NCBI GenBank assembly: GCA_034435035.1
Contig: DAOTXW010000060.1
Coordinates: 1,586-65,585 of the forward strand
Source of the DNA: Anaerolineae bacterium
GTDB taxonomy: Bacteria > Chloroflexota > Anaerolineae > Aggregatilineales > UBA3940
Direction of reading: 5' to 3'
Length of the DNA stretch: 64,000 nucleotides
The position numbers were made by a program, and so were the translations under genes. This document shows, in pieces, positions 2,891 through 23,687 of this stretch; position 1 is the first letter of the stretch, and each line of letters opens with the position of its first letter. The notes beneath the pieces were generated by a model that saw only the letters and a program-made list of their open reading frames with translations, was not told the DNA's origin and searched no databases.

Positions 2891-4699
2891 ATGAGCCAGA
2901 ATACACCATACACCTCAACCGCCCCGACGGGGCGCCTGGGCTGGCTGACCCACGTGGCGGCCCGCGACAGCGCCGCCGCCCGCCGGGGGGCAACCACGGC
3001 TGTGCTGCTGGTGATCGCCGCCGCGGCGACCCTCGTCGTCCTGACCGTGCAGGCGGTGACGGGCATCTTCACGGTGCCCGGCGCCCTGCTGCGCATGCTG
3101 ATCACGCTGGCGGTGGCGGGTGGGCTGTTCATGGCCAACCGCCTCGGCTATACCCGCGCGACCGGCACGGCCATGGCCCTGCTGATCCTGCTGCTGAACT
3201 TCGCCGTGCTGGACATGACCGGCCGCGAGCTGCCGGGCCCGGCGGTGCAGATCGTGCCGATCCTGGTCGCTGGGCTGCTGGGGACGCCTGCCTCCGCGCT
3301 CATTATGACCCTGCTGGCAGTTGCCGGGCACCTGATCGTCAACCTGCAGGCCGACCCCAATTACCTCACCGGGGCGGGCAGCGCGATCAGCGGCCTGCTG
3401 AACCTGTATGCTCAGTTCACCGTCGTTGGCATCGCCTCCTGGCTGTTTTCGCGGGTCAGCGCTCAGGCGCTGGAGGAAAGCAGCCGTTACAGCCTGACGC
3501 TCTCCAGCCGCCAGCTTGAGCTGGAGCAGCGCTTCGATGCCCAGAACCGCTATCTTCAGGCCACCACCGCCATCGCCCGCGCCATCGTCGGCGTGCGCGA
3601 CATCGATCGTCTGCTGGAGCAGGCCGTCGGGCTGGTGCGCGAGACATTCAACTACTATCATGTGCAGGTATTCCTGGTGGACGATGATCGCGAGTATGCG
3701 GTGCTGCGCCAGAGCACCGGCGAGGCCGGCCAGCAGCTGCTGGCCAGCGGCCATCGCCTGCCCGTCGGCAGCCTGAGCGTGATCGGGCAGGTCACGGCCA
3801 CCGGGCGCCCGGTGGTGGCCCGCGATACCGATGTCGATGCCATCCACCGCCGCAACAGGCTGCTGCCCCTGACGCGCTCTGAGATGGCGCTGCCGCTGGT
3901 GTCAGGCGACCAGGTGATCGGCGCGCTCGACCTGCAGAGCACCGAGCCGGACGCCTTCACGCCCGACGTGCTGCCGACCCTGCAGGCTATGGCCGACCAG
4001 CTGGCGATCGCGATTGAGAATGCGCGCCTCTACAGCCAGGCGCAGGACAACCTGCGGCAGCTCCAGAAGCTGTACAGCGAGGTCACCGAGCGATCCTGGA
4101 CCGACTTTCTGGCCTCGGCGGACGATGTTGACCGCCGGCAGGTCTACGGGCCGGAGCCGGCCGCGCTGCGGGCGCAGCGGAGCGATGTGGTGCGCCGCGT
4201 GCTGAACGCCGGCACGGTGCTGGTCTCGTCGGGGCAGGATGGACGCCCCGCCTACCTCGCGGCCCCGATCCTGGTGCGGGGTGAGGTGGTCGGCGTGATC
4301 GGCGTCGAGCCTGAGCGCAGCCGCGACTGGACGCAGGACGATGTGCAGCTCCTCCAGAGCGTGGCGGAGCGCACAGCGCTGGCTGTGGAGAACGCCCGAC
4401 TCTACCTGCAGGCGCAGCGCGCCGCCGACCGCGAGCGCCTGGTCAATACCATCGCCTCGCGCCTGCAGCGCGCGCCCAACCTGGCGATGCTGCTGGAAAG
4501 CGCGGCTCAGGAGCTGGCCAGCGCGCTGGGCACCGATAATGTGTATGCGGAAATCAGCCTTGATCAGCCGCTGCCCCGCCGGGAGGCCGGCGAAGGGTCG
4601 GACCGCGAGGCCGTCGAGGGGGCAGCCCGTCAGCATGACGGCTCGCTGCCGCCGGAGAGCGCCCGCGACGAGGCTGAGGAAGCGAGGGCCAAATCATGA
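2891..4699 (+). CDS. Polytopic membrane GAF sensor protein with no recognisable output domain (array paralog)
   Basis: Multi-TM N-terminus. Array-type GAF (FNYYHVQVFLVDDDREYAVLRQSTGEAGQQLLASGHRLPVGSLSVIGQ..TRSEMALPLVSGDQVIGALDLQS..MADQLAIAIENARLY). Second GAF-like half (APILVRGEVVGVIGVE..AVENARLYLQ). Acidic disordered tail. Confidence 0.85.
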   Translation: MSQNTPYTSTAPTGRLGWLTHVAARDSAAARRGATTAVLLVIAAAATLVVLTVQAVTGIFTVPGALLRMLITLAVAGGLFMANRLGYTRATGTAMALLILLLNFAVLDMTGRELPGPAVQIVPILVAGLLGTPASALIMTLLAVAGHLIVNLQADPNYLTGAGSAISGLLNLYAQFTVVGIASWLFSRVSAQALEESSRYSLTLSSRQLELEQRFDAQNRYLQATTAIARAIVGVRDIDRLLEQAVGLVRETFNYYHVQVFLVDDDREYAVLRQSTGEAGQQLLASGHRLPVGSLSVIGQVTATGRPVVARDTDVDAIHRRNRLLPLTRSEMALPLVSGDQVIGALDLQSTEPDAFTPDVLPTLQAMADQLAIAIENARLYSQAQDNLRQLQKLYSEVTERSWTDFLASADDVDRRQVYGPEPAALRAQRSDVVRRVLNAGTVLVSSGQDGRPAYLAAPILVRGEVVGVIGVEPERSRDWTQDDVQLLQSVAERTALAVENARLYLQAQRAADRERLVNTIASRLQRAPNLAMLLESAAQELASALGTDNVYAEISLDQPLPRREAGEGSDREAVEGAARQHDGSLPPESARDEAEEARAKS

Positions 4700-6942
4700 G
4701 CACGCGTTCACGAAGCGCCCGCGCCATCAATCTGCTGTCGCTGCCGATCGCGGTCAAGCTGGCGATCGGCCTCGGCGCGGTGCTGCTGATCACCGCCCTG
4801 GTCACCAACCAGCTGGTCAGCCAGGTGGTCACCGACGCGCAGCAGCAGGTGGTGCTCCAGGACCTGGAGACGCTCAGCCGCTCCAATGCCTTCCGGGTGG
4901 TTGACGTGCTGGGGCAGGAAATCATCACGCTGAACAACCTCGCCACCACCGCGCTCATCCAGCAGCAGCTGCGTCTGCTGTCCCAGTCTGACGCCGTTTT
5001 CCCGGCTGACGAAGAGACGGTGATCCTGCCCGATGCCCTGCTGACGCAGGAGGTCGTGGCCTTCCTGCAGACGCACCGCGAGTTCAGCACGGTGGCGATC
5101 GTCGATGAAAAGGGCATCGTCCGCGCGGTCGATCCGCTGCCGTTCGAGACCCGCCTCGACCCGGATAACTGGCGCTGGTACGAAGGCGCGCTGCTGGAAG
5201 GCACCTACATTCACGAGCCGGATGAAGACTTCCTGACCGGCGTCAACGGCATCCAGCTGGCCCTGCAGATCCCGGATACCGTCGAACCGGATCGCGCCCT
5301 GGGCGTGGTCTACGCCGTCTGGAACATGAGCAACGTGCTGGATGTCACCCTGGTAGGCACCAGCCGCGAGGGCACGGTGGTCGAGCTGGATGGCTCAGTG
5401 CTGATCTCCGGCACCGAGCCGCTGGGCAGCCTGCTCAACCGCCGCCTGTATGAGCGGGTGCGCGAAGCGCCTGCCGGATCGTTCCGGTTCACCGATGATC
5501 AGGGCCGCGAGTGGCTGTATGGCTTCGTCAACATGAGCACCCTGAATCTCGGCGATGAGCGCATCCGCAACCTGCGCTGGATCTTCCTGACCCGCCAGCC
5601 CCTCTCGGCCATCGAGGCCAACGTGAACCTGCTGGCCGGGCGGCTCCGGCTGGCCGTCGGTGCCAGCGCGCTGGTCGTCACGCTGGCGGTGGCCGGGTTC
5701 GCCACGCTGCTGCTGCGCCCGCTGCGCCGTCTGACCGACGCCGCGGCGCAGATCCGGCGCGGCAACCTGAGCGCGCCGATCCCCGATCTGCCCACTGATG
5801 AGGTGGGGCAGCTGGCCGGGGTGCTGCGCGGCCTGGTCGAGCAGCTGCTGGAGCGTGTGTCTGAGCTGCGTGCGGCTGTGCAGGTCTCCCATGCGGCGGT
5901 GCTGACGCTGGACCTTTCCACCATGCTCGAAGATGTGGTGCGCTCGCTGACCACCCAGTTCGGCTACCCGGATGTGCGCGTCTATCTGGTCAACCCGGCG
6001 GGCAACCGCGCCGTCATTCAGGCGGCAGCCGGCGCCGAGGGCGAGCGCCTGCTGCGTGCCGGTCACCGGGTGCCGGTCGATGAAACCACGCTGATCGGGC
6101 GGGCCATCCTGCTCGGCGAGCCGCAGATCGGCTCGGAGCGCGAGCGCCTGCGCGAGGCGGGCCTGATGACCGGGCGAGCCGAGCTGGCCATCCCGTTGCA
6201 GTCAGGCTCCCGCCCGCTGGGGGTCCTCTATCTGCTGGCCCGCCGCCTGGGCGCCTTCGAGGCGGAAGATGTGGACCTGCTGCGCCTGATCGCCGACCAG
6301 GTGAGCGCGACCATCGCCAACGCCCGCCTGTTTGAGCAGTCCGCGGCTAACCTGGCGGAAATTGAAGCCCTGAACCGCCGCCTGACCCGCGGCGGCTGGG
6401 AAGAGTACCTCGGCGAGGGCGGCGTCATCCGCCATACACCGGACCCGGAGCGGCGCTGGCCGGCGCTGGCGGCGGGCGAAGGCGGCAGCGCGGCCGCTGT
6501 CCAGGCCGCCACCTATGTCGAACCGGACGGCCGGATCGTGCTGGCCGCGCCGGTGCTGCTGCGCGGCGAGGTGATCGGCACGCTGGCCGCGACGCGCCCG
6601 GCGGGCGCTCGCTGGTCGCGCGATGAAGTGGCCCTGATGGAATCGGTCGCCGCCCGTATGGCGATGATCGCCGAAAGCATCCGCCTGGTTGACGAGTCGA
6701 GCCGACGCGCCCAGCGTGAGCAGCGCGTCAACGAGGTCTCCGCCAGCCTGTTGCAGCGGGCCACCAGCGTGGATGCCGTGCTGCGCGGGGCGCTGGATGA
6801 ACTGAACGAGGTGCTGGGCTCCGACCGTATTGCGCTGCGGCTGGGCCCGGCCGCGCCGGATGGCGACCGCCAGCCAGGGGCAGAGCGCGACGCCGGGGAT
6901 GAGGAGCGCCGGGGCCAGGGCGTCAATGGGGACAGGGAGTAG
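4696..6942 (+). CDS. Membrane sensor with TM, Cache-like extracytoplasmic domain, TM, HAMP and a divergent GAF; no output domain (array paralog)
   Basis: ATGA start/stop overlap with the upstream gene at 4696-4699. A HAMP-like segment follows the second TM (RPLRRLTDAAAQIRRGNLSAPIPDLPTDEVGQLAGVLRGLVEQL). The GAF is a more divergent copy (FGYPDVRVYLVNPAGNRAV..AELAIPLQSGSRPLGVLYL..IANARLFEQ). The LNRRLTRGGW linker is present. Confidence 0.85.
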   Translation: MSTRSRSARAINLLSLPIAVKLAIGLGAVLLITALVTNQLVSQVVTDAQQQVVLQDLETLSRSNAFRVVDVLGQEIITLNNLATTALIQQQLRLLSQSDAVFPADEETVILPDALLTQEVVAFLQTHREFSTVAIVDEKGIVRAVDPLPFETRLDPDNWRWYEGALLEGTYIHEPDEDFLTGVNGIQLALQIPDTVEPDRALGVVYAVWNMSNVLDVTLVGTSREGTVVELDGSVLISGTEPLGSLLNRRLYERVREAPAGSFRFTDDQGREWLYGFVNMSTLNLGDERIRNLRWIFLTRQPLSAIEANVNLLAGRLRLAVGASALVVTLAVAGFATLLLRPLRRLTDAAAQIRRGNLSAPIPDLPTDEVGQLAGVLRGLVEQLLERVSELRAAVQVSHAAVLTLDLSTMLEDVVRSLTTQFGYPDVRVYLVNPAGNRAVIQAAAGAEGERLLRAGHRVPVDETTLIGRAILLGEPQIGSERERLREAGLMTGRAELAIPLQSGSRPLGVLYLLARRLGAFEAEDVDLLRLIADQVSATIANARLFEQSAANLAEIEALNRRLTRGGWEEYLGEGGVIRHTPDPERRWPALAAGEGGSAAAVQAATYVEPDGRIVLAAPVLLRGEVIGTLAATRPAGARWSRDEVALMESVAARMAMIAESIRLVDESSRRAQREQRVNEVSASLLQRATSVDAVLRGALDELNEVLGSDRIALRLGPAAPDGDRQPGAERDAGDEERRGQGVNGDRE

Positions 6943-6948
6943 CCGCCG

Positions 6949-8730: not shown

Positions 8731-8742
8731 AGGAGGGCGAGG

Positions 8743-10956
8743 GTGCAGCGCCTCTTCAGTCGTTTAGCCTGGAATGAGCTTTCTATTCGCGCCAAGATCG
8801 GCGTGGTGGTGGTGCTGCTGGTGGCGGTGATCATCGTCTTCACGCTGATTGCCATCAGCTCGGTCACTGCGCTGGGCAGCCAGGTGCGGGCGGGCGTCAA
8901 CACCGCGGTCGAGGTCCGATCCGCCTCGCAGGAAGTGCTGGTCTCCATTGAGACGCTGCAGCGGATTCAGGGGCGGGCTGTGGATGACCTGCGCAACCCC
9001 GCGTTCAACCCTGAAACCGTGCCGCTGCGCGATGAATACCAGCGGGAGCTGGCACGCCTGAACGATGACCTGCTGCCGCGCCTGCGCCTGTTGATGCTGG
9101 AGGTCGCCACCGAGGAGCAGGCGGAGGCGCTGGCGGTGGATTTCGGCAACCTGGCGACGGCACTGGCCGAAAGCGAAGCCGCGTTCGAACGCACCTATCA
9201 GATCATCACCCTGCTGGCGGCGCCGGAGACGGGCGAACTGGCCCTGCTGACGGCCAGCGGGGATGACCTGGAAGCGGGCATTGCCAGTCTTTCCTCGCCG
9301 GGCTTTTCCGAGCAAATGACGCTGATCCGCAGCCTGGAAGGCAGCTTCGTGCGGACAGGTTCCACGGAGGACCTGCTGGCGCTGCGTCAGGCCATCGAGG
9401 CATTCCGCACCGACTATGAGACGCGCGTCGGGCGGCCCTTCCAGCTCAGCCAGACCCTGCAGGATATTGATGCCTATGAACAGCAGGTCGATGCTGTGGC
9501 GAATCTCCTGCCCCAGGTTGACCTGTCAAACAGTGCCGCCCTGACCAGCCTGGAACGGACTCGCAGCACAGCCCTGCGGATTGCCGCCATCGCTGCCCAG
9601 CAGGCGGATGATCAGGTCTTCAACATCGAGGCCATCACGACAACGGCCGCCCGCCCGCTGGCGCTGTCGGCGCTCGGCCAGATCCTGTTGATCGGCCTGC
9701 TGATGGGCCTGTTTGCCCGCAGCCTGGTGCGCAGCCTGCAGAATCTGCTGGAGACGTCTCGCCGCTTCGAGCAGGGCAACTTCCGTGCCCGCGCCCGGGT
9801 GGAAGGGGGCGATGAGTTCAGCCAGCTGGGCCGCAGCTTCAATTCGATGGCCTCGCAGCTTGATATGCTGGTGGGCGGCCTGGAGGCCCGCGTCGCGGAG
9901 CGTACTCGCGACCTGAGCATCACGGCGGAGATCGGACGCGCCGTGCTGGCGGCCCGCGATCCTCAGGTGCTGATGCAGGAAGTGGTCGAGCTGATTCGCC
10001 AGCGTTTTGACTTCTATCATGCCCAGGTGTTCCTGGTCGATGAAGAAGGCCGCTACGCCCGCCTCGCGGCCAGCACCGGCGCGGTCGGGCGCGAGCTGCT
10101 GGCCCGCCGCCACGCGCTGGGGGTGGGATCGCAGTCGGTCATCGGGCAGGTCACGGCGACCGGTGAGCCAGTGATTGCGCTGGATACAGACACCAGCGCG
10201 GTGCACCGCCGCAACGAACTGCTGCCCGACACGCGCTCGGAGATGGCGCTGCCCATGCGCATCGGCGATCAGGTCATCGGCGCCCTGGATGTGCAGAGTG
10301 TGGCGCCCAACGCCTTCGACCAGGATACGGTCGCCGTGTTCCAGATCATGGCCGACCAGCTGGCGATCGCGCTGGACAATGCGCGGCTGGCCGACCGGCT
10401 GCGCCAGGCGGTGGCCGATCTGGAGAATGTCGAGCGGCGCGTGACGGCGGAAATGTGGCGGGCCTATCAGCAGGCACGCCAGCCCGCCGGCGTACTGGGA
10501 TACGAGATGCAGGGCGAGGTGCTGCTGCCAAGCACCGGCGAGGCGCCGCCTGAGGCCCTGCAGGAAGCGATCCGCACCGGGCAGTCGGTCGTTCGCGGCA
10601 ACGGTGAGGGGGAATATCAGGTAGCGCTTCCGATCCGGGTGCGCGGCGAGGTGATCGGGGCCTTCGGCTTCGGCGGAGAGACGCTCCGCAGCCTCACGGG
10701 CGACGATGTGGCTCTGCTGGAAGCGGTGATCGACCGGGTGGGCCTGGCTCTGGAGAACATGCGCCTGGTTGAGCAGACCGCCCGCCGCGCGGAATATGAG
10801 CAGATCGTCAATGAGATCACGGCCAAGATCGTGGGTTCGACGGATGTCAATTTCATCCTGCAAACCACGGTGAAGGAGCTGGGGCGTGCCCTGCGCGCTC
10901 CGCAGACCAGCCTCCAGCTCCGCAGTGAGAATAGGGTGGAAGGCGGCCATGAGTAG
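8743..10956 (+). CDS. Membrane sensor with TM, helical extracytoplasmic domain, TM, HAMP and GAF; no output domain (array paralog)
   Basis: GTG start with AGGAGG 7 nt upstream. HAMP-like segment (RSLVRSLQNLLETSRRFEQGNFRARARVEGGDEFSQLGRSFNSMASQL). Array-type GAF (FDFYHAQVFLVDEEGRYARLAASTGAVGRELLARRHALGVGSQSVIGQ..IGALDVQS..MADQLAIALDNARL). Second GAF-like half (LPIRVRGEVIGAFGF..). Confidence 0.85.
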   Translation: MQRLFSRLAWNELSIRAKIGVVVVLLVAVIIVFTLIAISSVTALGSQVRAGVNTAVEVRSASQEVLVSIETLQRIQGRAVDDLRNPAFNPETVPLRDEYQRELARLNDDLLPRLRLLMLEVATEEQAEALAVDFGNLATALAESEAAFERTYQIITLLAAPETGELALLTASGDDLEAGIASLSSPGFSEQMTLIRSLEGSFVRTGSTEDLLALRQAIEAFRTDYETRVGRPFQLSQTLQDIDAYEQQVDAVANLLPQVDLSNSAALTSLERTRSTALRIAAIAAQQADDQVFNIEAITTTAARPLALSALGQILLIGLLMGLFARSLVRSLQNLLETSRRFEQGNFRARARVEGGDEFSQLGRSFNSMASQLDMLVGGLEARVAERTRDLSITAEIGRAVLAARDPQVLMQEVVELIRQRFDFYHAQVFLVDEEGRYARLAASTGAVGRELLARRHALGVGSQSVIGQVTATGEPVIALDTDTSAVHRRNELLPDTRSEMALPMRIGDQVIGALDVQSVAPNAFDQDTVAVFQIMADQLAIALDNARLADRLRQAVADLENVERRVTAEMWRAYQQARQPAGVLGYEMQGEVLLPSTGEAPPEALQEAIRTGQSVVRGNGEGEYQVALPIRVRGEVIGAFGFGGETLRSLTGDDVALLEAVIDRVGLALENMRLVEQTARRAEYEQIVNEITAKIVGSTDVNFILQTTVKELGRALRAPQTSLQLRSENRVEGGHE

Positions 10957-13900
10957 CAGACCCTCCCCGGTATCTCGTTGGTTTGCCCGGCAGCGCCGGC
11001 TGGGCGCGCTGCTGCTGGCGTTGTTCGTGCTGCTGGCGCTGGCGCCGACCGGCGCGCTGACGATCGTGTCAACGGTGCGCGACAACCAGAGTGCACGCGA
11101 ATCGGCCACGGCCCTGCTGAGCGCCTATGCCGATACCGGCGTTCGCGCCCTTGACCAGTGGGTCGTGGATACCCTTAACATCATCCGCTTCCAGCTTCAG
11201 GACAGAGAGGCGCGCCAGCTGATGATCGCGCTGGTAGCAGGCCCGCCGGAAGAATCGGGCCGGACGGCCCTGACCGCGGAGGCGGAGTTCACGCAGGATG
11301 TGCGCGATCTGGTCAACAGCACGGATTTCGATTACCTCGTCCTGCTGGACAGCCGCGGAATCGTGCGCGGCAGCAGCGATGCGCAGCTCCTCGGGCGCGA
11401 TCTCAGCAGCGAGCTGTGGTTCCGGTCGGCCCTCCAGAACCCGGAGGAAGCCCGGCTGTTCGGCCCGCTGCGCGATGGTGTCAGCGGCCAGCAGGGCCTG
11501 TTCTTCGCCGGGGCGCTGTCTTCCCCGGAGGGTGGCGCTCCGCTGGGCGTGCTGGGCGGCCGCGTGGGCTTCAGCCCGCTGGCCACGCTGCTGAGTCAGA
11601 ACCTGCCCGGCGGCGTCCTGGGCGCCACCGGCGATTACTTCCTGGTGCGCGAGGGGCAGCAGTACGTGACGCCGCCCCGCTTCGCGCCCGGCGCCGCGCT
11701 GGCGCTGGATGAGATCCTCCCCACGGCGCTGGCGGGCGTCGATGGCTCCGGCGAGTGGATCGACTACCGCGGTGAGCCGGTGCTGGGTGTTTATCGCTCG
11801 ATCGAACCACTGGGCATGACGCTGATCGTCAAGCAGGACGTGGCCGACGCTCTGGTGGCGACCCGGCAGCGCACGCAGTCTAACCTGGCGCTGGGGGGCG
11901 GCATCGGCCTGATCGCGCTGGTGCTGGGCTTCCTGGCGGCGCGCAGCGTCACCCGCCCGCTCAGCCAGCTGAGCCAGACGGCTGTCGATATCTCGCGCGG
12001 GGACCTGTCCGTGCAGATCCCGGAGTTCGCCATTACCGAACTGGGGCAGGTGGCGCACTCGCTCAATACGATGACCCGCCAGATCAGGAGCCTGCTGGAA
12101 TCCCAGGAAGCGACGATCCGCGCCCGCACGCGGCAGCTCCAGATCACGGCCCAGATCGGCCGCGCCATCGCGGCGGAGACCGATCTCGATCGCCTGCTGA
12201 ATGTAACCATCAACAGCATTTGCGAGCAGCTGGGTTACTATCACGCGCAGGTCTTTCTGATCGATGACCTGCGACAGTACGCTGTCCTGCGGGCCAGTAT
12301 GGGTGAAGCGGGCGCCGCGATGATCGAGCGCAGCCACAAGCTGCCGGTCGGTTCGCGCTCGGTGATCGGCCAGGCGACCTCAATCGGCGAGCCTGTGCTG
12401 GCCAGTGACACCATGCGGGCTGAATACTGGATGCCGAACCCGCTGCTGCCCGATACGCGCTCCGAGCTGGCTGTCCCGATCCGCATCGGCGATCAGGTCA
12501 TCGGGGCGCTGGATGTGCAGTCCGACCGCGTCGACGCCTTCGATGAAGAGACGATCGCAGCCCTCCAGACCGTGGCCGACCAGCTCGCCGTCGCGCTGCG
12601 CAACGCCCAGCTTTTTGACGAAAAGGAGGGCCTGATCTCCGCCTCCGTGCAGCTGACGCAGATGCTCACCCGGGATAACTGGGACTCCTACCTGCGCGGA
12701 CAGCGCTCGCCGCAGGGGGCGCTGGGCTACCGCTACGATCTCAGCAGCGTGCAGCCCGTGACCGGCGAGGGCGAGGGCGACAACGGCTACGGCGTGCGGG
12801 TTCCGATCGCGCTGCGCGGCCAGGTGATCGGCGAGCTGGCCGCCGAGCTGCCGGATGGCGAGGTCCTGGGCGATCAGGAGCGGCAGCTGGTGGGCGAGGT
12901 GCTGGATCGCGTCGCGCTGGCTCTGGAAAACGCCCGCCTGTTTGAGCAGACGCAGCTTTCGCTGCAGGAATCAAACCGCCTCTATCAGGCCAGCCGCCGC
13001 ATCACCGACGCGGACACGGCGGAGATGCTGGCTCAGGAGCTGGTCGAGCTGGCGGCCGTCGAGAACGCGGAGCGTGTGGCGCTCTTCCTGCTGGATGATC
13101 CCGATATGCCCCCCGGCGATCGGTGGGTGACGATGGCGAGCCTGTGGAGCCGTTCTCCTGATGATCCGGTGGCGCGGTTGGCCGTCCGGCTGCGGACCGG
13201 CCAGCCGCCCCTGCTGGGGATCGAGGGCACGCCGCCGGAAGGCCGGCTGGTGCATGACGTGGAAACCGATCCTGAACTGTCGGCGGCGGCCCGCGATAAC
13301 CTCCGCCAGTTGAATGTGCGCTCGGCGGCCACGTTCCCGCTGATTACGGGCCGCCGCACCGTGGGCTGGCTGGTCGTGCACAGCCTCAGCCAGCCGGGAG
13401 CCTTCGGGGAAAGTGTCGTGCGTTTCTACCGCACCCTGGCCGATCAGGCCGCCACGGCCCTGGAAGGGCTGCGTCTCCTGGAGCAGGCCCAGAGCCGCGC
13501 CCGCCGTCTGCAGGCCACTAACGAGGTGTCCCGCGCGGCTTCCTCCATCCTGAACCCCGACATCCTGCTGCCGCTGGTGGTCAGCCAGATCAGCGAGGCC
13601 TTCGGCTACTATCATGTGCAGATCTTCCTGCTGGATGAGATGGGCGAATGGGCGGTCCTGCGGGCCTCCACCGGCGAGGTGGGCAAGCAGCTGCTGGCCC
13701 GCGACCACCGCCTGCAGGTCGGCTCCCAGTCGGTGATCGGGCAGGTCACCAGCACCGGCCAGCCCTTCATCGTCCGCGATACGGATACTGACCCGGTACA
13801 CCGCCGCAACGAACTGCTGCCGCAGACGCGCTCAGAGATGGCCATCCCGCTCAAGACGGGCGACCGGGTGGTGGGGGTGCTGGATGTGCAGAGCACCCAG

Positions 13901-16540
13901 ATCAACGCCTTCGACAGCGAGGCGCAGGCGATCCTCCAGTCGCTGGCCGGCGAGCTGGCGGTCACGATGGAGAACGCGCAGCTCTTCCAGGAGATTCAGG
14001 ACCGTGTGGCCGAGCTGACCACCATCAACCTGGTGTCGCAGGCTGTGTCGCGGGCCAATACCCTGGACGAGGTCTATGAGGCCGTCGGCACGCAGCTGAC
14101 ACGGACGTTCGGCGCGCGCTCCGGCTTTCTGGCTGTGCTGCGGCCCGATCAGGCGATGATCGACGTGCCCATCTTCATCGATCAGGGCATGATCATCACG
14201 GACATCCCGCCCCAGCCGCTGGGGACCGGCCTCACCAGCCACGTCATCCGCACGCGCCAGCCGCTGCTGATCAACGAGAACCTGATGGAGGAGGCAGCCC
14301 GGCTGGGAGCTGTCGTCATCGGCGAGGCCAGCAAGAGCCTGCTGGCAGTCCCGCTGCTGATGGGCGAGGACGTGGTGGGGGCGATCAGCATTCAGGATCA
14401 GGAGCAGGAGCACGCCTACACCGAGGCCCACCTCCGCCAGCTCACCACCCTGGCCGCCTATATCGCGGTCAAGATCCGCAACGCCGAGCTGCTGGAGCAG
14501 GCGCAGACCAGCGCCGGCGAGCTGGGCTTCCTGTTCAATGTCACCCGCGCCGCAGTCGGCGCCAGCGACCTGGATACCTCGCTGATCGGCGTGGCGGACA
14601 TCCTGCGCAGCGAGATCGCCGGCGCTGAGGCGGCGGTGATCTACCTCCTGTCTGAAGATACCCGGCAGCTTGAAGCGCACGCGGCTGCGGGTTACGGCGG
14701 CAGCCTGTCCTACCGCAGTCCGGTGAACCGCGATGAGGGCCTGATCGGCCAGGTGGCCAGGAGCGCCCGCTCGCTGGTGGTGGAAGACACCCGGACCCAT
14801 GAGCTGGGCGCCGATGCCGCTGCGGCTGGCGTCCGTGCCGCTGTGCTGGTGCCGCTGCTCACCCCGGCCGGGCTGATCGGCGTGCTGGTTGTCCAGAGCA
14901 CCCGCCCCGGCGTCTTTGACGAAAATGACCTGCGCTTGCTGGAGACCGCCTCCGGCACGCTGACGGCCATCATCCAGAACGCGCGGCTGCTGGATGAGAT
15001 CAGCCGCGCCAATGAGCAGCTCAAAGAACTGGACCGCCTGAAGACGCAGTTCCTGGCCAACATGAGCCACGAGCTGCGTACCCCCCTGAACTCGATCATC
15101 GGCTTCTCGCGCGTCATGCTCAAGGGGATTGACGGCGAGCTCAACGATATGCAGACGCAGGACCTCTCCACGATCTATAACTCCGGCCAGCATCTGCTCG
15201 GCCTGATCAATAACATCCTGGACCTGTCCAAGATCGAAGCCCGCATGATGGAGATCCAGCCCGAATACATGGAGCTGGGCGAGATCGTGGACAGCGTGCT
15301 GGCCGCTGCCAAGGGCCTGACCAAGGACCAGCCCATCGAGCTGTACCGCGACCTTGAGCCGGGCCTGCCGCAGGTCTGGGGCGACCCGCAGCGCATCCGT
15401 CAGGTGCTGCTCAATCTGGTTTCCAACGCCGCCAAGTTCACCCAGGAAGGCAGCATCACCGTGCGTGCCTTCCGCCGCGACGGCGACCCGGAGACCGGCG
15501 CGGCGCCGTGCGTGCAGGTGGACGTGATCGATACCGGGATCGGCATCCCGGCTGATAAGCTGGACACCATCTTCGAGGCGTTCCAGCAGGTCGATGGCTC
15601 GACCACGCGCCAGTACGAAGGCACCGGGTTGGGCCTGCCGATCTCCAAGAACTTCATCGACCTGCACGGCGGGCAGATGTGGGTCACCAGCCAGGTCGGA
15701 GTCGGCTCGACCTTCAGCTTCACGGTGCCGCTGCACCCGGCGGTGACGGAGGCGTCGGAGACGGTGGCCAGGGCCGAGGGCGATACGCGCCCGCTGGTGC
15801 TGGCCGTTGACGATGAACCGGGCGTGATCGACCTGTACAGCCGCTACCTGGAGAAGGAAGGCTATGCCGTCCTGGGCCTGAGCCATGCCCTCGATCTGGT
15901 GCGGCAGGCGCAGGAGCTGCAGCCGCAGGCGATCCTGCTCGACCTCAACCTGCCGGGCAAGAATGGCTGGCTGGCCATCGCCGACCTCAGGCAGAACCTG
16001 GCGACCCGCGACATCCCGGTCATCGTATGCAGCATCGAAGAAGACCGCGAGCGGGCGGCTCAGGCTGGCGTGGCGGGCTACCTGATCAAGCCGATCATCG
16101 AGGACGACCTGATCGGCGCGCTGCGGCAGGTGTCCATGCCGGCGCCGGTTGCCCACCAGAGCGTGCTGGTGATCGACCCCTATGCCGATCACGCCGAGTA
16201 CATCAGGGCCGCCCTGGAATCGACCGGGCTTTACCGGGTCCGGATCGTCGGGGCCGGGCTGGAGGGGCTGCAGACGCTGCAGGAAGGCCGGCCCGATGCG
16301 CTGGTGCTGGACTTTGACCTGCCGGACATGGATGGCTATGGCCTGCTGGTATCCCTGCGCTCCCAGGCCGAGACCCGCCATCTGCCGGTGGTGGTGCTCA
16401 CCGCCCGCCCGGTCAGTGAGGAAGAGCGGGCGCGGCTGGGCGGCGACGGCGTGGCCTTCCTGAGCAAGCATGACTACGATGCCGTGCGCCTGATCGAGAG
16501 TATGGCGGCCGCGGTCGCCCACCACGGTGACGCTGGCTGA
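10949..16540 (+). CDS. Giant hybrid sensor histidine kinase: TM, Cache-like domain, TM, HAMP, about six GAF-like modules, HisKA, HATPase and two REC domains
   Basis: The ATG at 10949 overlaps the upstream stop (ATGAGTAG), so the ORF-track start at 10886 is probably too far upstream. HAMP (RPLSQLSQTAVDISRGDLSVQIPEF). Two array-type GAF copies (LGYYHAQVFLIDD.., FGYYHVQIFLLDE..). H-box NMSHELRTPLNSI with the His codon at 15068-15070. ATPase G-box GTGLGLPISKNFIDLHGG. REC acceptor regions ..AILLDLNLPGKNG.. and ..ALVLDFDLPDMDG... Confidence 0.9.
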   Translation: MSSRPSPVSRWFARQRRLGALLLALFVLLALAPTGALTIVSTVRDNQSARESATALLSAYADTGVRALDQWVVDTLNIIRFQLQDREARQLMIALVAGPPEESGRTALTAEAEFTQDVRDLVNSTDFDYLVLLDSRGIVRGSSDAQLLGRDLSSELWFRSALQNPEEARLFGPLRDGVSGQQGLFFAGALSSPEGGAPLGVLGGRVGFSPLATLLSQNLPGGVLGATGDYFLVREGQQYVTPPRFAPGAALALDEILPTALAGVDGSGEWIDYRGEPVLGVYRSIEPLGMTLIVKQDVADALVATRQRTQSNLALGGGIGLIALVLGFLAARSVTRPLSQLSQTAVDISRGDLSVQIPEFAITELGQVAHSLNTMTRQIRSLLESQEATIRARTRQLQITAQIGRAIAAETDLDRLLNVTINSICEQLGYYHAQVFLIDDLRQYAVLRASMGEAGAAMIERSHKLPVGSRSVIGQATSIGEPVLASDTMRAEYWMPNPLLPDTRSELAVPIRIGDQVIGALDVQSDRVDAFDEETIAALQTVADQLAVALRNAQLFDEKEGLISASVQLTQMLTRDNWDSYLRGQRSPQGALGYRYDLSSVQPVTGEGEGDNGYGVRVPIALRGQVIGELAAELPDGEVLGDQERQLVGEVLDRVALALENARLFEQTQLSLQESNRLYQASRRITDADTAEMLAQELVELAAVENAERVALFLLDDPDMPPGDRWVTMASLWSRSPDDPVARLAVRLRTGQPPLLGIEGTPPEGRLVHDVETDPELSAAARDNLRQLNVRSAATFPLITGRRTVGWLVVHSLSQPGAFGESVVRFYRTLADQAATALEGLRLLEQAQSRARRLQATNEVSRAASSILNPDILLPLVVSQISEAFGYYHVQIFLLDEMGEWAVLRASTGEVGKQLLARDHRLQVGSQSVIGQVTSTGQPFIVRDTDTDPVHRRNELLPQTRSEMAIPLKTGDRVVGVLDVQSTQINAFDSEAQAILQSLAGELAVTMENAQLFQEIQDRVAELTTINLVSQAVSRANTLDEVYEAVGTQLTRTFGARSGFLAVLRPDQAMIDVPIFIDQGMIITDIPPQPLGTGLTSHVIRTRQPLLINENLMEEAARLGAVVIGEASKSLLAVPLLMGEDVVGAISIQDQEQEHAYTEAHLRQLTTLAAYIAVKIRNAELLEQAQTSAGELGFLFNVTRAAVGASDLDTSLIGVADILRSEIAGAEAAVIYLLSEDTRQLEAHAAAGYGGSLSYRSPVNRDEGLIGQVARSARSLVVEDTRTHELGADAAAAGVRAAVLVPLLTPAGLIGVLVVQSTRPGVFDENDLRLLETASGTLTAIIQNARLLDEISRANEQLKELDRLKTQFLANMSHELRTPLNSIIGFSRVMLKGIDGELNDMQTQDLSTIYNSGQHLLGLINNILDLSKIEARMMEIQPEYMELGEIVDSVLAAAKGLTKDQPIELYRDLEPGLPQVWGDPQRIRQVLLNLVSNAAKFTQEGSITVRAFRRDGDPETGAAPCVQVDVIDTGIGIPADKLDTIFEAFQQVDGSTTRQYEGTGLGLPISKNFIDLHGGQMWVTSQVGVGSTFSFTVPLHPAVTEASETVARAEGDTRPLVLAVDDEPGVIDLYSRYLEKEGYAVLGLSHALDLVRQAQELQPQAILLDLNLPGKNGWLAIADLRQNLATRDIPVIVCSIEEDRERAAQAGVAGYLIKPIIEDDLIGALRQVSMPAPVAHQSVLVIDPYADHAEYIRAALESTGLYRVRIVGAGLEGLQTLQEGRPDALVLDFDLPDMDGYGLLVSLRSQAETRHLPVVVLTARPVSEEERARLGGDGVAFLSKHDYDAVRLIESMAAAVAHHGDAG

Positions 16541-16579
16541 TCGACCGGTCCGAGGCCCGATACCTGAAAGCGATAGTCC

Positions 16580-18244
16580 ATGTCTTCTGTCGATATCCTG
16601 ATCAGCTGCCCGGCCTGCCAGCACAGCATGCCGTTCACCCGCCCGCTGGCCAGCTGCCCGGCCTGCGGGGGAGGCAACCTCGATGCCGCCTACCGGGTGG
16701 CCGAAAGGCTCCCCTGGCCGGAGGCGCTCCGGGATCGCCCGCGCACCATGTGGCGCTACCACGAACTGCTGCCCCTGCGCAGCAGCGCCTCCCGGGTGAC
16801 GCTGGGTGAGGGCGGCACGCCGCTGATCCGCTGCGACAACCTCGGCGCCATGCTGGGGCTGCGCCATCTGTATGTCAAGGATGAGCGTCAGGGGCCTACC
16901 GGCTCGTTCAAGGATCGGCAGGCATCGCTGGCCATTTCGGCGGTGCGCGAGATGGGCATCTCCGAGATGGTCGTCGCCAGCACCGGCAATGTCGCTATCG
17001 CCTATTCGGCCTATGCGGCTCGCGCCGGCATCAAGCTCTGGGTGTTCACCATCTCCAGCGTCCCCGGCGACAAGATGCGCGAGGTGACGCTGTACGGCAC
17101 CGAGCTGATCAAGGTGACCGGCACCTATGACCAGGCCAAGCAGATCGCCGAACGCTTCGCCCAGACCAAGGGCCTGTTCCTCGACCGCGGCATCAAGAGC
17201 ATCGCGGCCAAAGAGAGCATGAAGACTCTGGCCTTCGAGATCGCCGAAGACCTGGCCATGATCTACGGCCCGTCGCCCTCCGGCGCGCCGTGGCGCGCTC
17301 CGCACTGGTACATTCAGGCCGTCAGCGGCGGGCTGGGGCCAGTCGGCGTGATCAAGGGCTTCGCCGAACTGGAGGGGTTGGGCCTCTCACAGGGCACCCC
17401 CCGGCTGGGGCTGATCCAGTCTTCCGGCTGTGATCCGATGGTGCGCGGCTTCCAGGCCGATCAGGAGGAAGCCGCTCCGATCCTGCACCCCAAGACGCGC
17501 ATCGCCACCGTGGCGACCGGCACGCCGGGCGTGGCCTATAAGATCCTGCGGCGGCATGTGCTGGAGTATGGCGGGACGTTCGAATCCGTCAGCGACGAGG
17601 ATGCCTACCGGGCGCTCAAGACGGTGGCGCAGCTGGAAGGCATCTCCGTGGAGCCGGCCACGGCGCTGGCCTTCGCCGGGCTGTTCAAGATGGCCCGCCA
17701 GCGGCTGATCGACCCCGATGAGATCGTCGTCGTCAACTGCTCCGGGCACACCTTCCCGGTCGAGAAGCACATCCTGGGCGATGAACTGGGCCGTGATGTC
17801 GATGTGACCGAGGCTTCGACCGACATCCCGCAGGAGGGCCTGCTCTCCGCCCTCCAGACGGTCGATAAGCGGGTGAGTCGGGTGGTGGTGATCGAAGATG
17901 ACCGCAACGCTTCGATGCTGATGAAGCGCATCCTCCAGGCGCACGGCATCAAGGAAGTGTACCAGGCTTTTGACGGACAGGAGGGCATTGAGGCGGTCGA
18001 GCGCGTCACCCCGGATCTGATCGTGCTCGACCTGATGATGCCGCACGTGGACGGTTTCGGTGTCCTGGACGCCCTCAAGATGGATGAGCGGCTGCGCGAT
18101 GTGCCGGTGGTGGTCGTGACGGCCAAAGACCTCACCGCTGATGAGCGCGCCCGACTCAGCGGGCAGGTACAGTCCCTGCTGCTGAAGGGATCCTTTGTGG
18201 ATGATGACGCGCTCCAGGCGCTGCTGGAACAGAAGCTGAGCTGA
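16580..18244 (+). CDS. Threonine-synthase-like PLP-dependent enzyme fused to a C-terminal response-regulator receiver (REC) domain
   Basis: N-terminal Zn-ribbon-like CPAC..CPAC. ThrC/PALP-type lysine motif GPTGSFKDRQASLAIS. TLGEGGTPLIRC. The C-terminal ~120 aa form a complete REC (VVVIEDD.., ..DLIVLDLMMPHVDG.., ..PVVVVTAKD.., ..LLLKG). Confidence 0.85.
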   Translation: MSSVDILISCPACQHSMPFTRPLASCPACGGGNLDAAYRVAERLPWPEALRDRPRTMWRYHELLPLRSSASRVTLGEGGTPLIRCDNLGAMLGLRHLYVKDERQGPTGSFKDRQASLAISAVREMGISEMVVASTGNVAIAYSAYAARAGIKLWVFTISSVPGDKMREVTLYGTELIKVTGTYDQAKQIAERFAQTKGLFLDRGIKSIAAKESMKTLAFEIAEDLAMIYGPSPSGAPWRAPHWYIQAVSGGLGPVGVIKGFAELEGLGLSQGTPRLGLIQSSGCDPMVRGFQADQEEAAPILHPKTRIATVATGTPGVAYKILRRHVLEYGGTFESVSDEDAYRALKTVAQLEGISVEPATALAFAGLFKMARQRLIDPDEIVVVNCSGHTFPVEKHILGDELGRDVDVTEASTDIPQEGLLSALQTVDKRVSRVVVIEDDRNASMLMKRILQAHGIKEVYQAFDGQEGIEAVERVTPDLIVLDLMMPHVDGFGVLDALKMDERLRDVPVVVVTAKDLTADERARLSGQVQSLLLKGSFVDDDALQALLEQKLS

Positions 18245-18286
18245 TCACCATGACCCTCGCTGGACAGGAGAAATGTTGAGGCGAGC

Positions 18287-19351
18287 GTGACTTACCCACC
18301 GCAGGCGCGCGGAGGACTCCGCGCCGGGCTGCTGGCCGGGCTGCTGACCCCGGTCTTCATGGGGATGGCGCCGATCTTCGGTAAGCTGGCAATCCGCTCT
18401 GGCCTGGATCCCTACACGCTGGCAGCGATCCGCACCGCAGCGGCCGCCGCGGTCCTGTGGGTAGTCTACCTGATCTTCTTCCGCCGGTTCATCTATATCT
18501 TCCCGGCCGGCCTGCTGGGCACGGCGGCGGTGGGGGCCGTCAACGGGCTGGGATCGCTGCTGTATTATAACGGCCTGCTCCTGCTGGATGACGCCTCGCT
18601 GGCCCAGCTGCTGAACATGCTGTATGTGGTCTTCGTCATGCTGCTGACGCGCATTTACGGCGGCCATATCTCACGGATCAGCCTGCTGCGCGGCGCCCTG
18701 GCTTTCCTGGCCGTCTACCTGCTGACGGGCTTCGACGGGGCGGGCCGCGGCGCGGTGCACTGGCTGGGCGTCGGGCTGATGATCGGTTCGGCCTTCACGT
18801 ATGCCTACCATGTCGTCATCGGCCAGCGCGGGATGTTCGAGATGCCCGCGCCGACCATGGCGCTGTACGCCCTGACGTGGATGGCGGTGACGGTGGTGCT
18901 GGGGCGTCTGCTGCTGGGCCGCTACCTGATGGGGTCGTGGGCGCCGGTGGTGCCGGCTGGCTGGCTGTTCGTGATCGGCCTGACGGCGGTCACCGCCCTG
19001 TCCCGGGTGACCCTGTTCGCTGGCGTGCGGAACCTGGGCGCGCTGCAGACCCTGCTGCTCAGCGCTGCCGAGATCGGCGTGACCCTGCTGGCGGCCTTTC
19101 TGATGCTGGGCGAGAGCCTGGCGCTGCCCCAGTGGATCGGCGTGCTGGTGCTGCTGGCGAGTGTGGCGCTCTCGCGCTGGGATTCCGATATCCGCGATGC
19201 GGCCTACCGCCCGCTGCTGGTGCCCAGCCCGCTGGGCGGCCTGCCGCTGGGCAGCACGCCCCTGACGCCCAACCGCTTCTCCACCATCTCCCGTCTGTAC
19301 CGCCGCCGCCCGCGCTCCAAGCTGGCCGATGCGCCGCCCGGCCCCACCTAG
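18287..19351 (+). CDS. EamA/DMT-family transporter (10-TM drug/metabolite exporter type)
   Basis: Two-fold repeated 5-TM hydrophobic pattern. The N-terminus ..GMAPIFGKLAIRSGLDPYTLAAIR.. is typical of EamA domains. Its stop shares a CTAG palindrome with the convergent gene. Confidence 0.75.
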   Translation: MTYPPQARGGLRAGLLAGLLTPVFMGMAPIFGKLAIRSGLDPYTLAAIRTAAAAAVLWVVYLIFFRRFIYIFPAGLLGTAAVGAVNGLGSLLYYNGLLLLDDASLAQLLNMLYVVFVMLLTRIYGGHISRISLLRGALAFLAVYLLTGFDGAGRGAVHWLGVGLMIGSAFTYAYHVVIGQRGMFEMPAPTMALYALTWMAVTVVLGRLLLGRYLMGSWAPVVPAGWLFVIGLTAVTALSRVTLFAGVRNLGALQTLLLSAAEIGVTLLAAFLMLGESLALPQWIGVLVLLASVALSRWDSDIRDAAYRPLLVPSPLGGLPLGSTPLTPNRFSTISRLYRRRPRSKLADAPPGPT

Positions 19352-20163
19352 CCGATCGCGTAACCCGCGAACCGGTCGGGGATCAGCACCGCTGTCTCCG
19401 GGCTGAGTGCGCGCACCCGGCTGGCGAAGGCCGCCAGATCGATCCGCCGCAGCGTCGGGATCAGCCCCGCCGGCGGGACGATCATCGGCCGCACGGGCCG
19501 ATCCAGCGGCTGGAACATGTCGTCCCAGTGATTGGGCAGCACCAGCCGGGGCCGGCAGCCCGCCAGGATGGCCCCCAGCCGCGCCGGGGACGCGTCCGCG
19601 CCGATCAGCAGCACGTCAGCCTGAACCGCCGGCTCCGCCTCGATCCCGCTGGCCACCAGCACGCTGACTCCCTCCGCCTCCACCCGGAACGAGAGCAGAC
19701 TGTCCATCCGGTAATCGCGGGCTTGCAGCGGCGGCCGCAGGCCGGGGCGCAGCGGGCCGGTGTACGGGATGCGCCCGAAGATGCGGCGGTGACGCGAGCG
19801 GTAGACCGTCACCCGGAACGGGCCGCAGGCCAGCGCATCGCCCGGCCCGATGCCGCGCAGCCGATCCGCGGGGACGCCCAGCAGCGCCAGCAGAGCGCAG
19901 CCCTGCGGGGAAGCGTAGATCGACGCGCCGGTCAGACGGGCGGCCTCCGGCACGTCCATCAGGTGATCGTAGTGGGCGTGCGTCACCAGCAGATGCCCGG
20001 CAGGCGGGGTATGGTGAGCAATCGCGGCCGCGTCCGGGATGGCCCGCCCCAGCGCCACCTGCCGCAGCGGCAGCCGCGTGAAGTACGGGTCGATCAGCAG
20101 CCGTCCGTCCGGGTGCTCAAAGTGCCAGCCGGCGGCCCCCAGGTAGCGCAGCGTGATCGCCAT
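19348..20163 (-). CDS. MBL-fold metallo-hydrolase
   Basis: LRYLGAAGW..IDPYF.. beginning and an HxHxDH motif (LLVTHAHYDHLMD). Confidence 0.8.
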   Translation of the reverse strand: MAITLRYLGAAGWHFEHPDGRLLIDPYFTRLPLRQVALGRAIPDAAAIAHHTPPAGHLLVTHAHYDHLMDVPEAARLTGASIYASPQGCALLALLGVPADRLRGIGPGDALACGPFRVTVYRSRHRRIFGRIPYTGPLRPGLRPPLQARDYRMDSLLSFRVEAEGVSVLVASGIEAEPAVQADVLLIGADASPARLGAILAGCRPRLVLPNHWDDMFQPLDRPVRPMIVPPAGLIPTLRRIDLAAFASRVRALSPETAVLIPDRFAGYAIG

Positions 20164-20166
20164 GCT

Positions 20167-21468: not shown

Positions 21469-22345
21469 CTGAGACGTGGTATTCACGACGGTCGCTCCTT
21501 GGGCGTGAGAGAAACTCCTGCACGATGGCGTTGAACGCCTCCGGCTCTTCCAGCATTGGCATGTGCGCGCTGCGCGGCAGGACCTCGACCTGTGCGCCGG
21601 GGATGCGCCGGCTCCCCGCGGCGCAGGGATCGATCGGCAGCATGGCATCCTGCTGCCCCCAGATGATCAGGGCGGGGGGCTCCAGCGCCGCCAGCTCATT
21701 GAAGAAACGGCGCCGGCGTTTGTCCGGCAGGAAGTCGGCGGCCAGCATGCGCAGCCCCGGCCACCAGACCAGCAGCCCGCGGGCCAGGTTCACCTCGGAG
21801 ACCCGGATGATCGGCTCCCGCGCCGCTCCCCACGGATCGACAATCGCCAGCCCCTCCAGGGAGCGCAGCACGTAGGGGTCGGCGCGGCGCGTGGCAGCCG
21901 CTGCCAGCAGATAAGGCGTCCGCGGCAGCATCCGCGCCGCGGTGCCCCAGGGGAAGCTCTCGCTCAGCCCCACCGGGTTGACCAGCACCACCCGCGACAC
22001 CCGGCCCGGATGCGTCAGCGCCCAGGCGATGCTGAGCGCGCCGCCCAGCGAGTTGCCCATCAGCGTGACCGGCGGCAGCTCCAGCGCATCCAGCAGCCCG
22101 GTCAGCCAGCGGCAGTAGAAGGCCAGCTCGTAGGGCCAGCGCCCGCCCGCCGAGCGCCCGTGCCCCGGCAGGTCGGGGGCGATGACGGTGAAGCGGCCGC
22201 GCAGCGCCTCCACCGTATAGGTCCAGCACTCCGAGCTTGCGGCCCAGCCGTGCAGCAGGATAACCGGCGGCCCGTGCCCCTCGATGCGCACATGGGTGAG
22301 GATTCCATCCACGGGGATCATCTGGCCTGTGTCCATGGCGCCCAT
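21437..22345 (-). CDS. Alpha/beta-fold hydrolase
   Basis: HGPPVILLHGWAASS.., ..APDLPGHGRS.., GxSxG elbow LMGNSLGGALS. The start is uncertain (22345, 22336 or 22396). Confidence 0.75.
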   Translation of the reverse strand: MGAMDTGQMIPVDGILTHVRIEGHGPPVILLHGWAASSECWTYTVEALRGRFTVIAPDLPGHGRSAGGRWPYELAFYCRWLTGLLDALELPPVTLMGNSLGGALSIAWALTHPGRVSRVVLVNPVGLSESFPWGTAARMLPRTPYLLAAAATRRADPYVLRSLEGLAIVDPWGAAREPIIRVSEVNLARGLLVWWPGLRMLAADFLPDKRRRRFFNELAALEPPALIIWGQQDAMLPIDPCAAGSRRIPGAQVEVLPRSAHMPMLEEPEAFNAIVQEFLSRPRSDRREYHVSDEPHQRAERA

Positions 22346-22423
22346 TATGGCCCGGAGGGCGGGCCGGCGAAAGTCGGGCGCGGAGCGGCCTCGCACGGGG
22401 GCGGCGTCCCGCCGGAACCCGAC

Positions 22424-23670: not shown

Positions 23671-23687
23671 CGGGAGGGGGCGAAGGT

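Follow-up and report, generated by a model that had tools for sequence, protein, structure and literature searches.

In two-component systems, the output is almost always transcription or a second messenger. A receiver (REC) domain can also control catalysis in a phosphorylation-dependent manner, as in CheB and PleD, and CheB, PleD/WspR and RpfG have in common a canonical receiver that is covalently attached to an enzyme and encoded beside a kinase. The gene described here, located at positions 16580–18244 of a 64,000-nucleotide stretch of DNA from an Anaerolineae bacterium (contig DAOTXW010000060.1; the whole stretch is called the window), encodes a protein built in a similar way, in which an enzyme resembling threonine synthase (ThrC) and dependent on pyridoxal phosphate (PLP) is joined to a receiver. 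It differs from CheB, PleD/WspR and RpfG in that the output is a PLP enzyme of the amino-acid-metabolism type, the receiver is C-terminal, and a dedicated permease is its partner. Fusions of receivers to standard metabolic enzymes have already been surveyed as a category (Galperin et al. 2018, PMC5847659), and the archaeal REC-enzyme fusions catalogued there have a narrow phyletic distribution, whereas the ThrC-like-REC family spans at least 589 species. The original prediction, made from the sequence of the window, had set a receiver on a metabolic enzyme apart from the normal DNA-binding or second-messenger outputs; the category as a whole has precedents, whereas the ThrC/PALP-REC combination is undescribed in the searchable literature.

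The enzyme part shares its fold-type II fold with the class-I threonine synthases (T. thermophilus 1UIM and 1V7C, A. aeolicus 2ZSJ, M. tuberculosis 2D1F, and B. subtilis 6CGQ), together with the SFKDR lysine motif, the STGN carboxylate loop, the E-x-x-K-T motif, and a Ser/Thr facing N1 of PLP. It is approximately 30% identical to them, adds an N-terminal zinc ribbon and the C-terminal REC, and differs in its motifs, with VGNAGN replaced by VSGGxGP, STGNT replaced by STGNV, and the NSVNPxR loop replaced as well. The same ribbon and PLP domain are found in the ThrC-like clade of the PRK08197/PRK05638 type, some members of which carry a C-terminal regulatory module; in those fused to LeuA_dimer or PadR (33–36% identity), an allosteric domain or a DNA-binding winged helix-turn-helix (wHTH) stands where the query has the receiver. 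A ThrC fold controlled by an appended regulatory element is likewise known from the plant enzyme (A. thaliana 2C2B, approximately 21% identity in the structural alignment), which is activated by S-adenosylmethionine; its regulator is an N-terminal metabolite-binding extension rather than a receiver. Cysteate synthase (TIGR03844), which uses O-phosphoserine and sulfite, is a zinc-ribbon, ThrC-derived enzyme with a changed substrate and thus provides a precedent for neofunctionalization within the clade.

With moderate confidence, we read the protein as a response regulator with a ThrC-like PLP enzyme as its output; it would be phosphorylated at D484 by the neighboring GAF kinase and would work with an EamA permease, probably on a non-housekeeping substrate. 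The architecture of the protein, its conserved catalytic and phospho-acceptor residues, and the conserved gene module around it are established by the observations below. The features of the gene are as follows.

16580..18244, + strand: ThrC-like PLP enzyme with a C-terminal receiver, 554 amino acids (aa); open reading frame (ORF), Pfam, homologues, and species loci
16607..16666, + strand: N-terminal four-cysteine zinc ribbon, C10, C13, C26, and C29; conservation and an AlphaFold2 beta ribbon
16796..17740, + strand: fold-type II PLP domain PALP, aa 73–387; Pfam, phmmer against the PDB, and Foldseek
16910..16912, + strand: codon of K111, the predicted PLP Schiff-base lysine in GSFKDR; aligns to K61 of T. 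thermophilus ThrC (1uim)
17750..17878, + strand: variable interdomain linker, aa 391–433; low predicted local distance difference test (pLDDT) scores and conservation
17834..17854, + strand: linker motif E419-G-L-L-x-x-L425; conservation in species loci
17882..18190, + strand: REC domain, aa 435–537, with E439/D440, T514, and K536; Pfam and conservation
18029..18031, + strand: codon of D484, the predicted phospho-acceptor Asp (LIVLD); conservation and alignments

In Pfam, PALP (PF00291) matches aa 73–387 with 212.7 bits (cut-off 35) and Response_reg (PF00072) matches aa 435–537 with 62.3 bits (cut-off 30.2), the latter alignment reaching position 100 of the 111 in the hidden Markov model (HMM). 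All motifs quoted in the original prediction (CPAC...CPAC, GSFKDR, TLGEGGTPL, IEDD, LIVLDLMMP, VVVVTAKD, and LLLKG) are present in the translation. An identical 554-aa protein is encoded in a metagenome-assembled genome (MAG) at NCBI (GCA_964451875.1, contig CAYVJV010000011.1) and, with the same neighbors, in an independent Logan assembly of run SRR10095374. We searched 5.8 billion proteins for homologues and took the best 120 matches, every one of which has PALP and Response_reg in one protein of approximately 550 aa at 58–76% identity; those with a named source are from Anaerolineae or Chloroflexota. A profile of unfused relatives brought in approximately 100 more fused proteins, whose full-length alignments with the query show 49–59% identity; in total, more than 200 distinct fused homologues align with the query over its full length at 49–76% identity. 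In a scan of one genome per GTDB species, at least 589 species-representative genomes were found to encode a relative of the fused protein. The 80 listed loci, on which the further analysis was done, are all from Chloroflexota and span Anaerolineae, Anaerolineales, Aggregatilineales, Ardenticatenaceae, Thermoflexia, Phototrophicaceae, Ca. Leptofilum, and Ca. Leptovillus; all 80 have the fusion in a single reading frame with the acceptor Asp in place. The identical protein in the independent assembly, the hundreds of fused homologues, and the 80 in-frame loci together confirm that the PALP-REC fusion is real and is not an artefact, including at the junction near 17870, which had been singled out beforehand as the place where an assembly error might lie.

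Both halves of the protein look functional and strongly constrained, judging from the conservation of catalytic and phospho-acceptor residues. Across the 80 species-representative proteins, with which alignments of 73 and 113 family members agree, the ribbon cysteines C10, C13, C26, and C29 are invariant (80/80, 73/73, and 113/113), as are the PLP lysine K111 and the carboxylate loop S134-T-G-N-V138 (both 80/80), while the PLP phosphate loop S249-G-G-x-G-P254 is retained in 78–80 and S388, the residue facing N1 of PLP, in 77 of the 80 species. The receiver keeps its acidic pair (E or D at position 439, followed by D440), D484, T/S514, and K536 in all 80 species, and in alignments A1 and A3 these positions are invariant or nearly so, D484 without exception. 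A ThrC-type fold with a zinc ribbon and a PLP lysine in one ORF with a receiver, as originally predicted, is borne out by Pfam, by the structure matches, and by this conservation, and the receiver holds up on both its HMM score and its acceptor Asp. Within the linker, the EGLLxxL motif is nearly invariant (G in 79, and the three leucines in 76, 73, and 77 of the 80 species) and the rest is variable.

Two AlphaFold2 runs, with multiple sequence alignments of 73 and 113 sequences, both modeled aa 1–390 and beta1–beta4 of the REC well, and the zinc ribbon appears as a beta ribbon with a pLDDT of 81–92. The pLDDT falls below 50 in the linker (aa 391–429 in the first model and aa 391–418 in the second) and in alpha4-beta5-alpha5 of the REC (aa 514/517–554), where neither run drew a beta5 strand. 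Because the early linker and this part of the REC are predicted at such low confidence, the models neither favor nor contradict any particular switching mechanism. Conserved residues are present in aa 517–554 (18128–18241) despite the failure of both models in this segment.

The fused gene lies at the end of a long same-strand run of signaling genes, followed by a permease gene.

4696..6942, + strand: dCache-HAMP-GAF protein, 748 aa, no output domain; Pfam, order kept in loci L003–L006
6949..8730, + strand: GAF-GAF protein, 593 aa, no output domain; Pfam, conserved gene order
8743..10956, + strand: HAMP-GAF protein, 737 aa, no output domain; Pfam, conserved gene order
10886..16540, + strand: hybrid histidine kinase, 1884 aa from the first start codon; Pfam and phmmer domain mapping
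18287..19351, + strand: permease of the EamA/drug-metabolite transporter (DMT) family, 354 aa, two EamA repeats; Pfam, 60.3 bits against 28.2

The hybrid kinase, which in the public gene call begins at 10949 and is 1863 aa long, contains HAMP, five GAF, HisKA (74.1 bits), HATPase_c (101.7 bits), and two REC domains, with the core at approximately 15041–15736, REC1 at 15797–16123, and REC2 at approximately 16163–16474. The H-box SHELRTP is visible in its translation, and no HPt domain was detected in it by Pfam and phmmer domain mapping. The fused ORF starts 39 nucleotides (nt) after the stop of the kinase, the spacing originally given, and is followed after 42 nt by the EamA gene, which ends the same-strand run, the next gene being convergent. 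These short gaps, along with a scan that found no terminator-like or promoter-like site between the three genes, weakly suggest an operon. Directly upstream of the kinase, six consecutive + strand ORFs (3–10956, which include 3–1061, 1061–2722, and 2891–4699 in addition to those listed above) encode GAF, HAMP-GAF, or dCache-HAMP-GAF proteins without an output domain. The order of the last three (4696–10956) is conserved in L003–L006, and the six may be accessory sensors working with the kinase.

The order of dCache/HAMP/GAF proteins, giant GAF hybrid kinase, ThrC-like-REC, and EamA is found in six loci with 59–100% identity, in one of which (L007) the fused gene is separated by a REC-kinase (11668–12909) from an EamA gene on the opposite strand; more distant members have a REC-HisKA-HATPase gene directly downstream of the fused gene. 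We counted the neighbors over those of the 80 species loci that have enough flanking sequence for each count. Upstream of the fused gene, 63 of 70 loci have a kinase core on the same strand no more than 1.3 kb away, and 56 of 62 have a GAF domain no more than 3.5 kb away; downstream, a REC-kinase (REC-HisKA-HATPase) follows within 0.5 kb in 56 of 75 and an EamA homologue within 2.2 kb in 54 of 70. Of the 64 loci whose two flanks are both available, 63 have one or more kinases next to the fused gene; the 64 divide as follows.

Upstream kinase, REC-kinase, and EamA: 36 of 64 loci
Upstream kinase and EamA (the form in the window): 9 of 64 loci
Upstream kinase and REC-kinase: 6 of 64 loci
REC-kinase and EamA: 6 of 64 loci
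Upstream kinase only: 6 of 64 loci
No kinase, no REC-kinase, and no EamA: 1 of 64 loci

The usual order of the module is therefore a GAF-rich histidine kinase, the ThrC-like-REC protein, usually a REC-kinase, and an EamA permease; the REC-kinase is absent from the whole window. The adjacency of the fused gene to the hybrid kinase and the EamA gene, first noted here, recurs at most of the other loci. Since the linkage to both is conserved beyond this genome, the idea of a module that senses a signal, converts a small molecule, and transports it is reasonable, although as first proposed it missed the usual fourth gene. The original assignment of the neighboring gene to the EamA family is supported by its two EamA repeats, but no specific similarity to a named threonine/homoserine exporter model was found for the protein, its only NCBIfam match being a weak one to TIGR00950 (22.7 against 230.2 bits). 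In a Thermoflexus sp. MAG (L011, 8949–11623), the fused gene lies 6 nt after an IF-2B/MtnA-like gene and precedes a gene for an SBP_bac_5 protein.

The best solved relatives of the PLP domain are the class-I threonine synthases 2zsj and 1uim (E approximately 1e-40, phmmer against the PDB), and in Foldseek the AlphaFold2 model matches enzymes of this class with target-normalized template modeling (TM) scores of 0.83–0.86. The best NCBIfam match, PRK08197, reaches 247 bits where the cut-off is 303; TIGR00260 (152.7 against 167.1), PRK05638 (159.5 against 421), and all remaining ThrC models are below their cut-offs as well. Cysteate synthase was rejected as the identity of the enzyme, as TIGR03844 gives 104.2 bits where 324.9 are needed. 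The failure of all threonine-synthase and cysteate-synthase equivalog cut-offs justifies the caution with which the substrate had been treated from the outset.

In the alignment with T. thermophilus ThrC, STGNT is changed to STGNV, VGNAGN to VSGGLGP, and the loop NSVNPHR to DRGIKSIAAK. Residues V138, R203, G204, and G250 of the query occupy the positions of T88, N154, S155, and N188 of the Thermus enzyme, and A210/K211 lie near R160; we take these five Thermus residues to be binders of the substrate phosphate, a list that reportedly originates in published work on that enzyme. V138, G204, and G250 are fixed in all 80 species, and a basic residue is found at position 203 (R/K) in 70 and at position 211 (K/R) in 53 of them. 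From these alignments, the distal pocket appears to have been rebuilt and yet is often still basic. The scores below all curated ThrC cut-offs and the replaced pocket residues indicate that the fused enzyme is probably a paralogue with a different substrate and not the housekeeping ThrC, and metabolic reconstructions of Chloroflexota MAGs are probably misled where these proteins are automatically labeled "threonine synthase". When all ORFs of the window and of 89 related loci were searched by phmmer with Thermus ThrC, no canonical thrC was found, and the fused gene was the only match except in L065 and L069. These two loci have a second, divergent ThrC-like ORF of 371 aa approximately 3.5 kb downstream of the fused gene (15911–17023 and 15868–16980, respectively), which is without the STGN motif and scores 222.8 bits against a PRK06450 cut-off of 301.

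An exhaustive representative search with the PLP part of the query gave a survey of the architectures in which this scaffold occurs.

PALP + REC or PALP + REC + REC: 48–54% identity to the query; P0122, P0124, P0125
Unfused zinc-ribbon proteins: 41–55% identity to the query; P0123, P0131, P0132, P0134
PALP + LeuA allosteric domain: 33–36% identity to the query; P0177, P0190
PALP + PadR wHTH: 32–36% identity to the query; P0204, P0229, P0191

In a crude neighbor-joining tree, all REC fusions fall in one derived clade of the SGGxGP subfamily, with unfused lineages branching below this clade and one unfused group nested within it, which looks like a secondary loss of REC. The tree thus suggests a single origin of the REC fusions. 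In the aligned PadR-fused relatives, the PLP lysine is replaced by I, L, or R, and P0204, P0229, and P0191 are likely pseudoenzymes that serve as ligand sensors for a transcription factor. The scaffold appears to have repeatedly gained C-terminal regulatory modules and, given the loss of the PLP lysine in the PadR-fused forms, to have become a non-catalytic sensor at least once; exchange of the regulatory tail would be a habit of the scaffold, because sister lineages carry the LeuA allosteric domain or PadR.

Several relatives deserve mention in their own right. P0177, P0190, P0206, and P0214 are ThrC-like proteins of approximately 615 aa fused to a LeuA allosteric/dimerization domain (PF08502); P0177, the only LeuA-fused one scored, passes the PRK08197 cut-off, and such fusions may be feedback-regulated threonine synthases. 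P0124 and P0125 carry tandem receivers (PALP+REC+REC), and the fragment P0140, in which HATPase_c is joined directly to PALP, is either a true kinase-enzyme fusion or a frameshift. Unfused members of the SGGxGP subfamily lie in glycan-biosynthesis clusters in a Candidatus Binatia MAG (L008, 8001–10724) and in a JGI metagenome contig (L009, 8001–10722), in both cases with a PLP decarboxylase of the Orn/DAP/Arg type directly 3' of the unfused gene. The decarboxylase directly after the gene within a glycan cluster suggests that these members contribute to the synthesis of an amino-acid-derived glycan substituent, a context that is specialized rather than housekeeping.

We consider it unlikely that the fused protein is a genuine threonine synthase, which would convert O-phosphohomoserine to threonine under two-component control, comparable to the control of the plant enzyme by S-adenosylmethionine, with EamA as an RhtA-like threonine/homoserine exporter. 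Although all top sequence and structure matches are threonine synthases and public annotation gives this name to many family members, the query falls below every ThrC equivalog cut-off, some of which its close unfused relatives reach or approach (P0123, 305.5 against 303 in PRK08197; P0131, 196 against 167 in TIGR00260). The LeuA-fused members of the clade, one of which (P0177) clears the ThrC cut-off and which resemble feedback-regulated biosynthetic enzymes, argue for this alternative, whereas the neighbors of the fused gene are signaling and transport genes and neither hom nor thrB was seen among the annotated genes of the window. The evidence from the pocket is likewise divided between the basic residues retained at positions 203 and 211 and the fixed V138, G204, and G250, which occupy polar sites of Thermus ThrC presumed to bind phosphate. 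Finally, the unfused subfamily members beside a decarboxylase in glycan-biosynthesis clusters point away from threonine synthesis.

It is also doubtful, in our view, that the PLP domain serves as the input of the protein. An amino-acid-like ligand, possibly bound as an external aldimine as in GabR/MocR, would then gate the gain or loss of phosphate by the receiver, and the protein would act, under metabolite control, as a phospho-sink or as a link from the GAF kinase to the REC-kinase, with EamA supplying the ligand. Such a role is consistent with the C-terminal position of the receiver, which is the reverse of that in most response regulators, with the two receivers of P0124 and P0125, and with the REC-HisKA-HATPase gene immediately after the fused gene in 56 of the 75 loci, which suggests a multi-step relay; the form in the window, however, has no REC-kinase to relay to. 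The PadR-fused relatives without the PLP lysine indicate that the fold can be used as a non-catalytic sensor, but in contrast to these pseudoenzymes the full catalytic and PLP-binding apparatus of the fused family is invariant across the 80 species. This argument is weakened by GabR-type sensors, which also retain the PLP lysine. The literature searched offers no precedent for sensor logic of this kind. The weakest alternative, that two genes were merged by a sequencing, assembly, or frameshift error near 17870, could draw on the poorly conserved linker and its low confidence in the models but is refuted by the identical protein in an independent assembly, the fused homologues from different sources, the 80 in-frame loci, and the conserved motif within the linker, leaving it a vanishingly small probability.

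In the preferred reading, that of a PLP enzyme controlled by a kinase, phosphotransfer, the substrate, and the directions of both regulation and transport are inferred in the following way. The adjacent GAF-rich hybrid kinase would integrate intracellular or periplasmic ligands through dCache, HAMP, and GAF modules, with a possible contribution to sensing from three to six kinase-less GAF proteins whose genes come directly before that of the kinase. The kinase would then phosphorylate D484 of the receiver, as may the downstream REC-HisKA-HATPase kinase in most relatives. Phosphorylation is proposed to alter the packing of the REC output face and the linker helix EGLLxxL on the dimeric PLP domain, and the altered packing would switch the catalytic domain on or off, similar to the REC in CheB or PleD. 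The catalytic domain would be a zinc-ribbon, ThrC-like fold-type II PLP enzyme that keeps all predicted PLP- and alpha-carboxylate-binding residues, and its rebuilt distal pocket suggests a neofunctionalized paralogue, for which the most likely substrate seems to be an amino acid whose side chain bears an anionic or otherwise different leaving group. The EamA permease would move the product out or the substrate in.

Several observations weigh against this reading. One of the 64 species loci with both flanks has no adjacent kinase at all, and the Thermoflexus locus L011 has none in the 10 kb upstream and 2.4 kb downstream of the fused gene. The pocket sites also vary across the zinc-ribbon ThrC clade at large, and do so in members that clear the threonine-synthase cut-off as well, so that the pocket divergence, taken by itself, would be compatible with O-phosphohomoserine as the substrate. 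The two AlphaFold2 models contain no confident interdomain packing and lend no structural support to the switch. Moreover, no searchable paper describes a ThrC-REC or PALP-REC family.

A more far-reaching version of the proposal, which we regard as rather improbable, is that the four-gene module is a self-contained device for signal production, in which a PLP enzyme gated by a kinase makes a non-proteinogenic amino acid that is exported by EamA. The GAF kinases would read the state of the cell and switch on this single PLP enzyme by phosphorylation, and the enzyme would synthesize the compound from a central phospho- or acyl-amino acid in a single reaction. Once exported by EamA, the product would be shared by filamentous Chloroflexota as a diffusible signal or public good. 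If this were true, it would constitute a previously unrecognized class of two-component-gated metabolite signaling.

Whatever the product, the preferred reading of a receiver-controlled PLP enzyme, if true, would mean that a histidine kinase exerts post-translational control over a metabolic reaction through an amino-acid-type PLP enzyme. What is likely new here is the breadth of the family, the conserved four-gene module, and the non-canonical chemistry that the enzyme would carry out. The family is no one-off: it spans at least 589 Chloroflexota species, with Ca. Leptofilum, Ardenticatenaceae, and Phototrophicaceae among the named lineages, its catalytic and phospho-acceptor residues are strictly conserved, and a dedicated kinase and permease accompany it. 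With one enzyme, one kinase, and one transporter, it would be a tractable system in which to study receiver control of a PLP enzyme, and it could lead to a new reaction or exported metabolite in a phylum for which few signaling pathways have been characterized.

The remainder of the window contains further genes of note. Three convergent hydrolase genes follow the EamA gene on the opposite strand (19348–22396, - strand) and encode an MBL-fold protein, an LCAT-like alpha/beta hydrolase, and an alpha/beta hydrolase. This trio recurs near the module in L003–L005, with insertions between the genes, and looks like local synteny rather than a part of the module. Approximately 3 kb downstream of the module, at 22645–24419 (+ strand), cysK (TIGR01139, 482 bits, above the cut-off) is followed by a cysE-like serine acetyltransferase gene; the pair is present in L001 and absent at the same position in L003–L005. 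The window is probably near the chromosomal replication origin, because dnaA, with DnaA_N, Bac_DnaA, and Bac_DnaA_C domains, is located at 36580–38067 (+ strand); a clear GC-skew switch was not seen in the coarse composition profile of the window. In an ORF of 804 aa at 33186–35600 (- strand), a Peptidase_S24 (LexA-like) domain at the N-terminus is unusually paired with an FGE-sulfatase domain at the C-terminus. Elsewhere in the window are an sdh/frd-like cluster and an unrelated HisKA_3 kinase, next to which lies an ORF that contains a REC domain.

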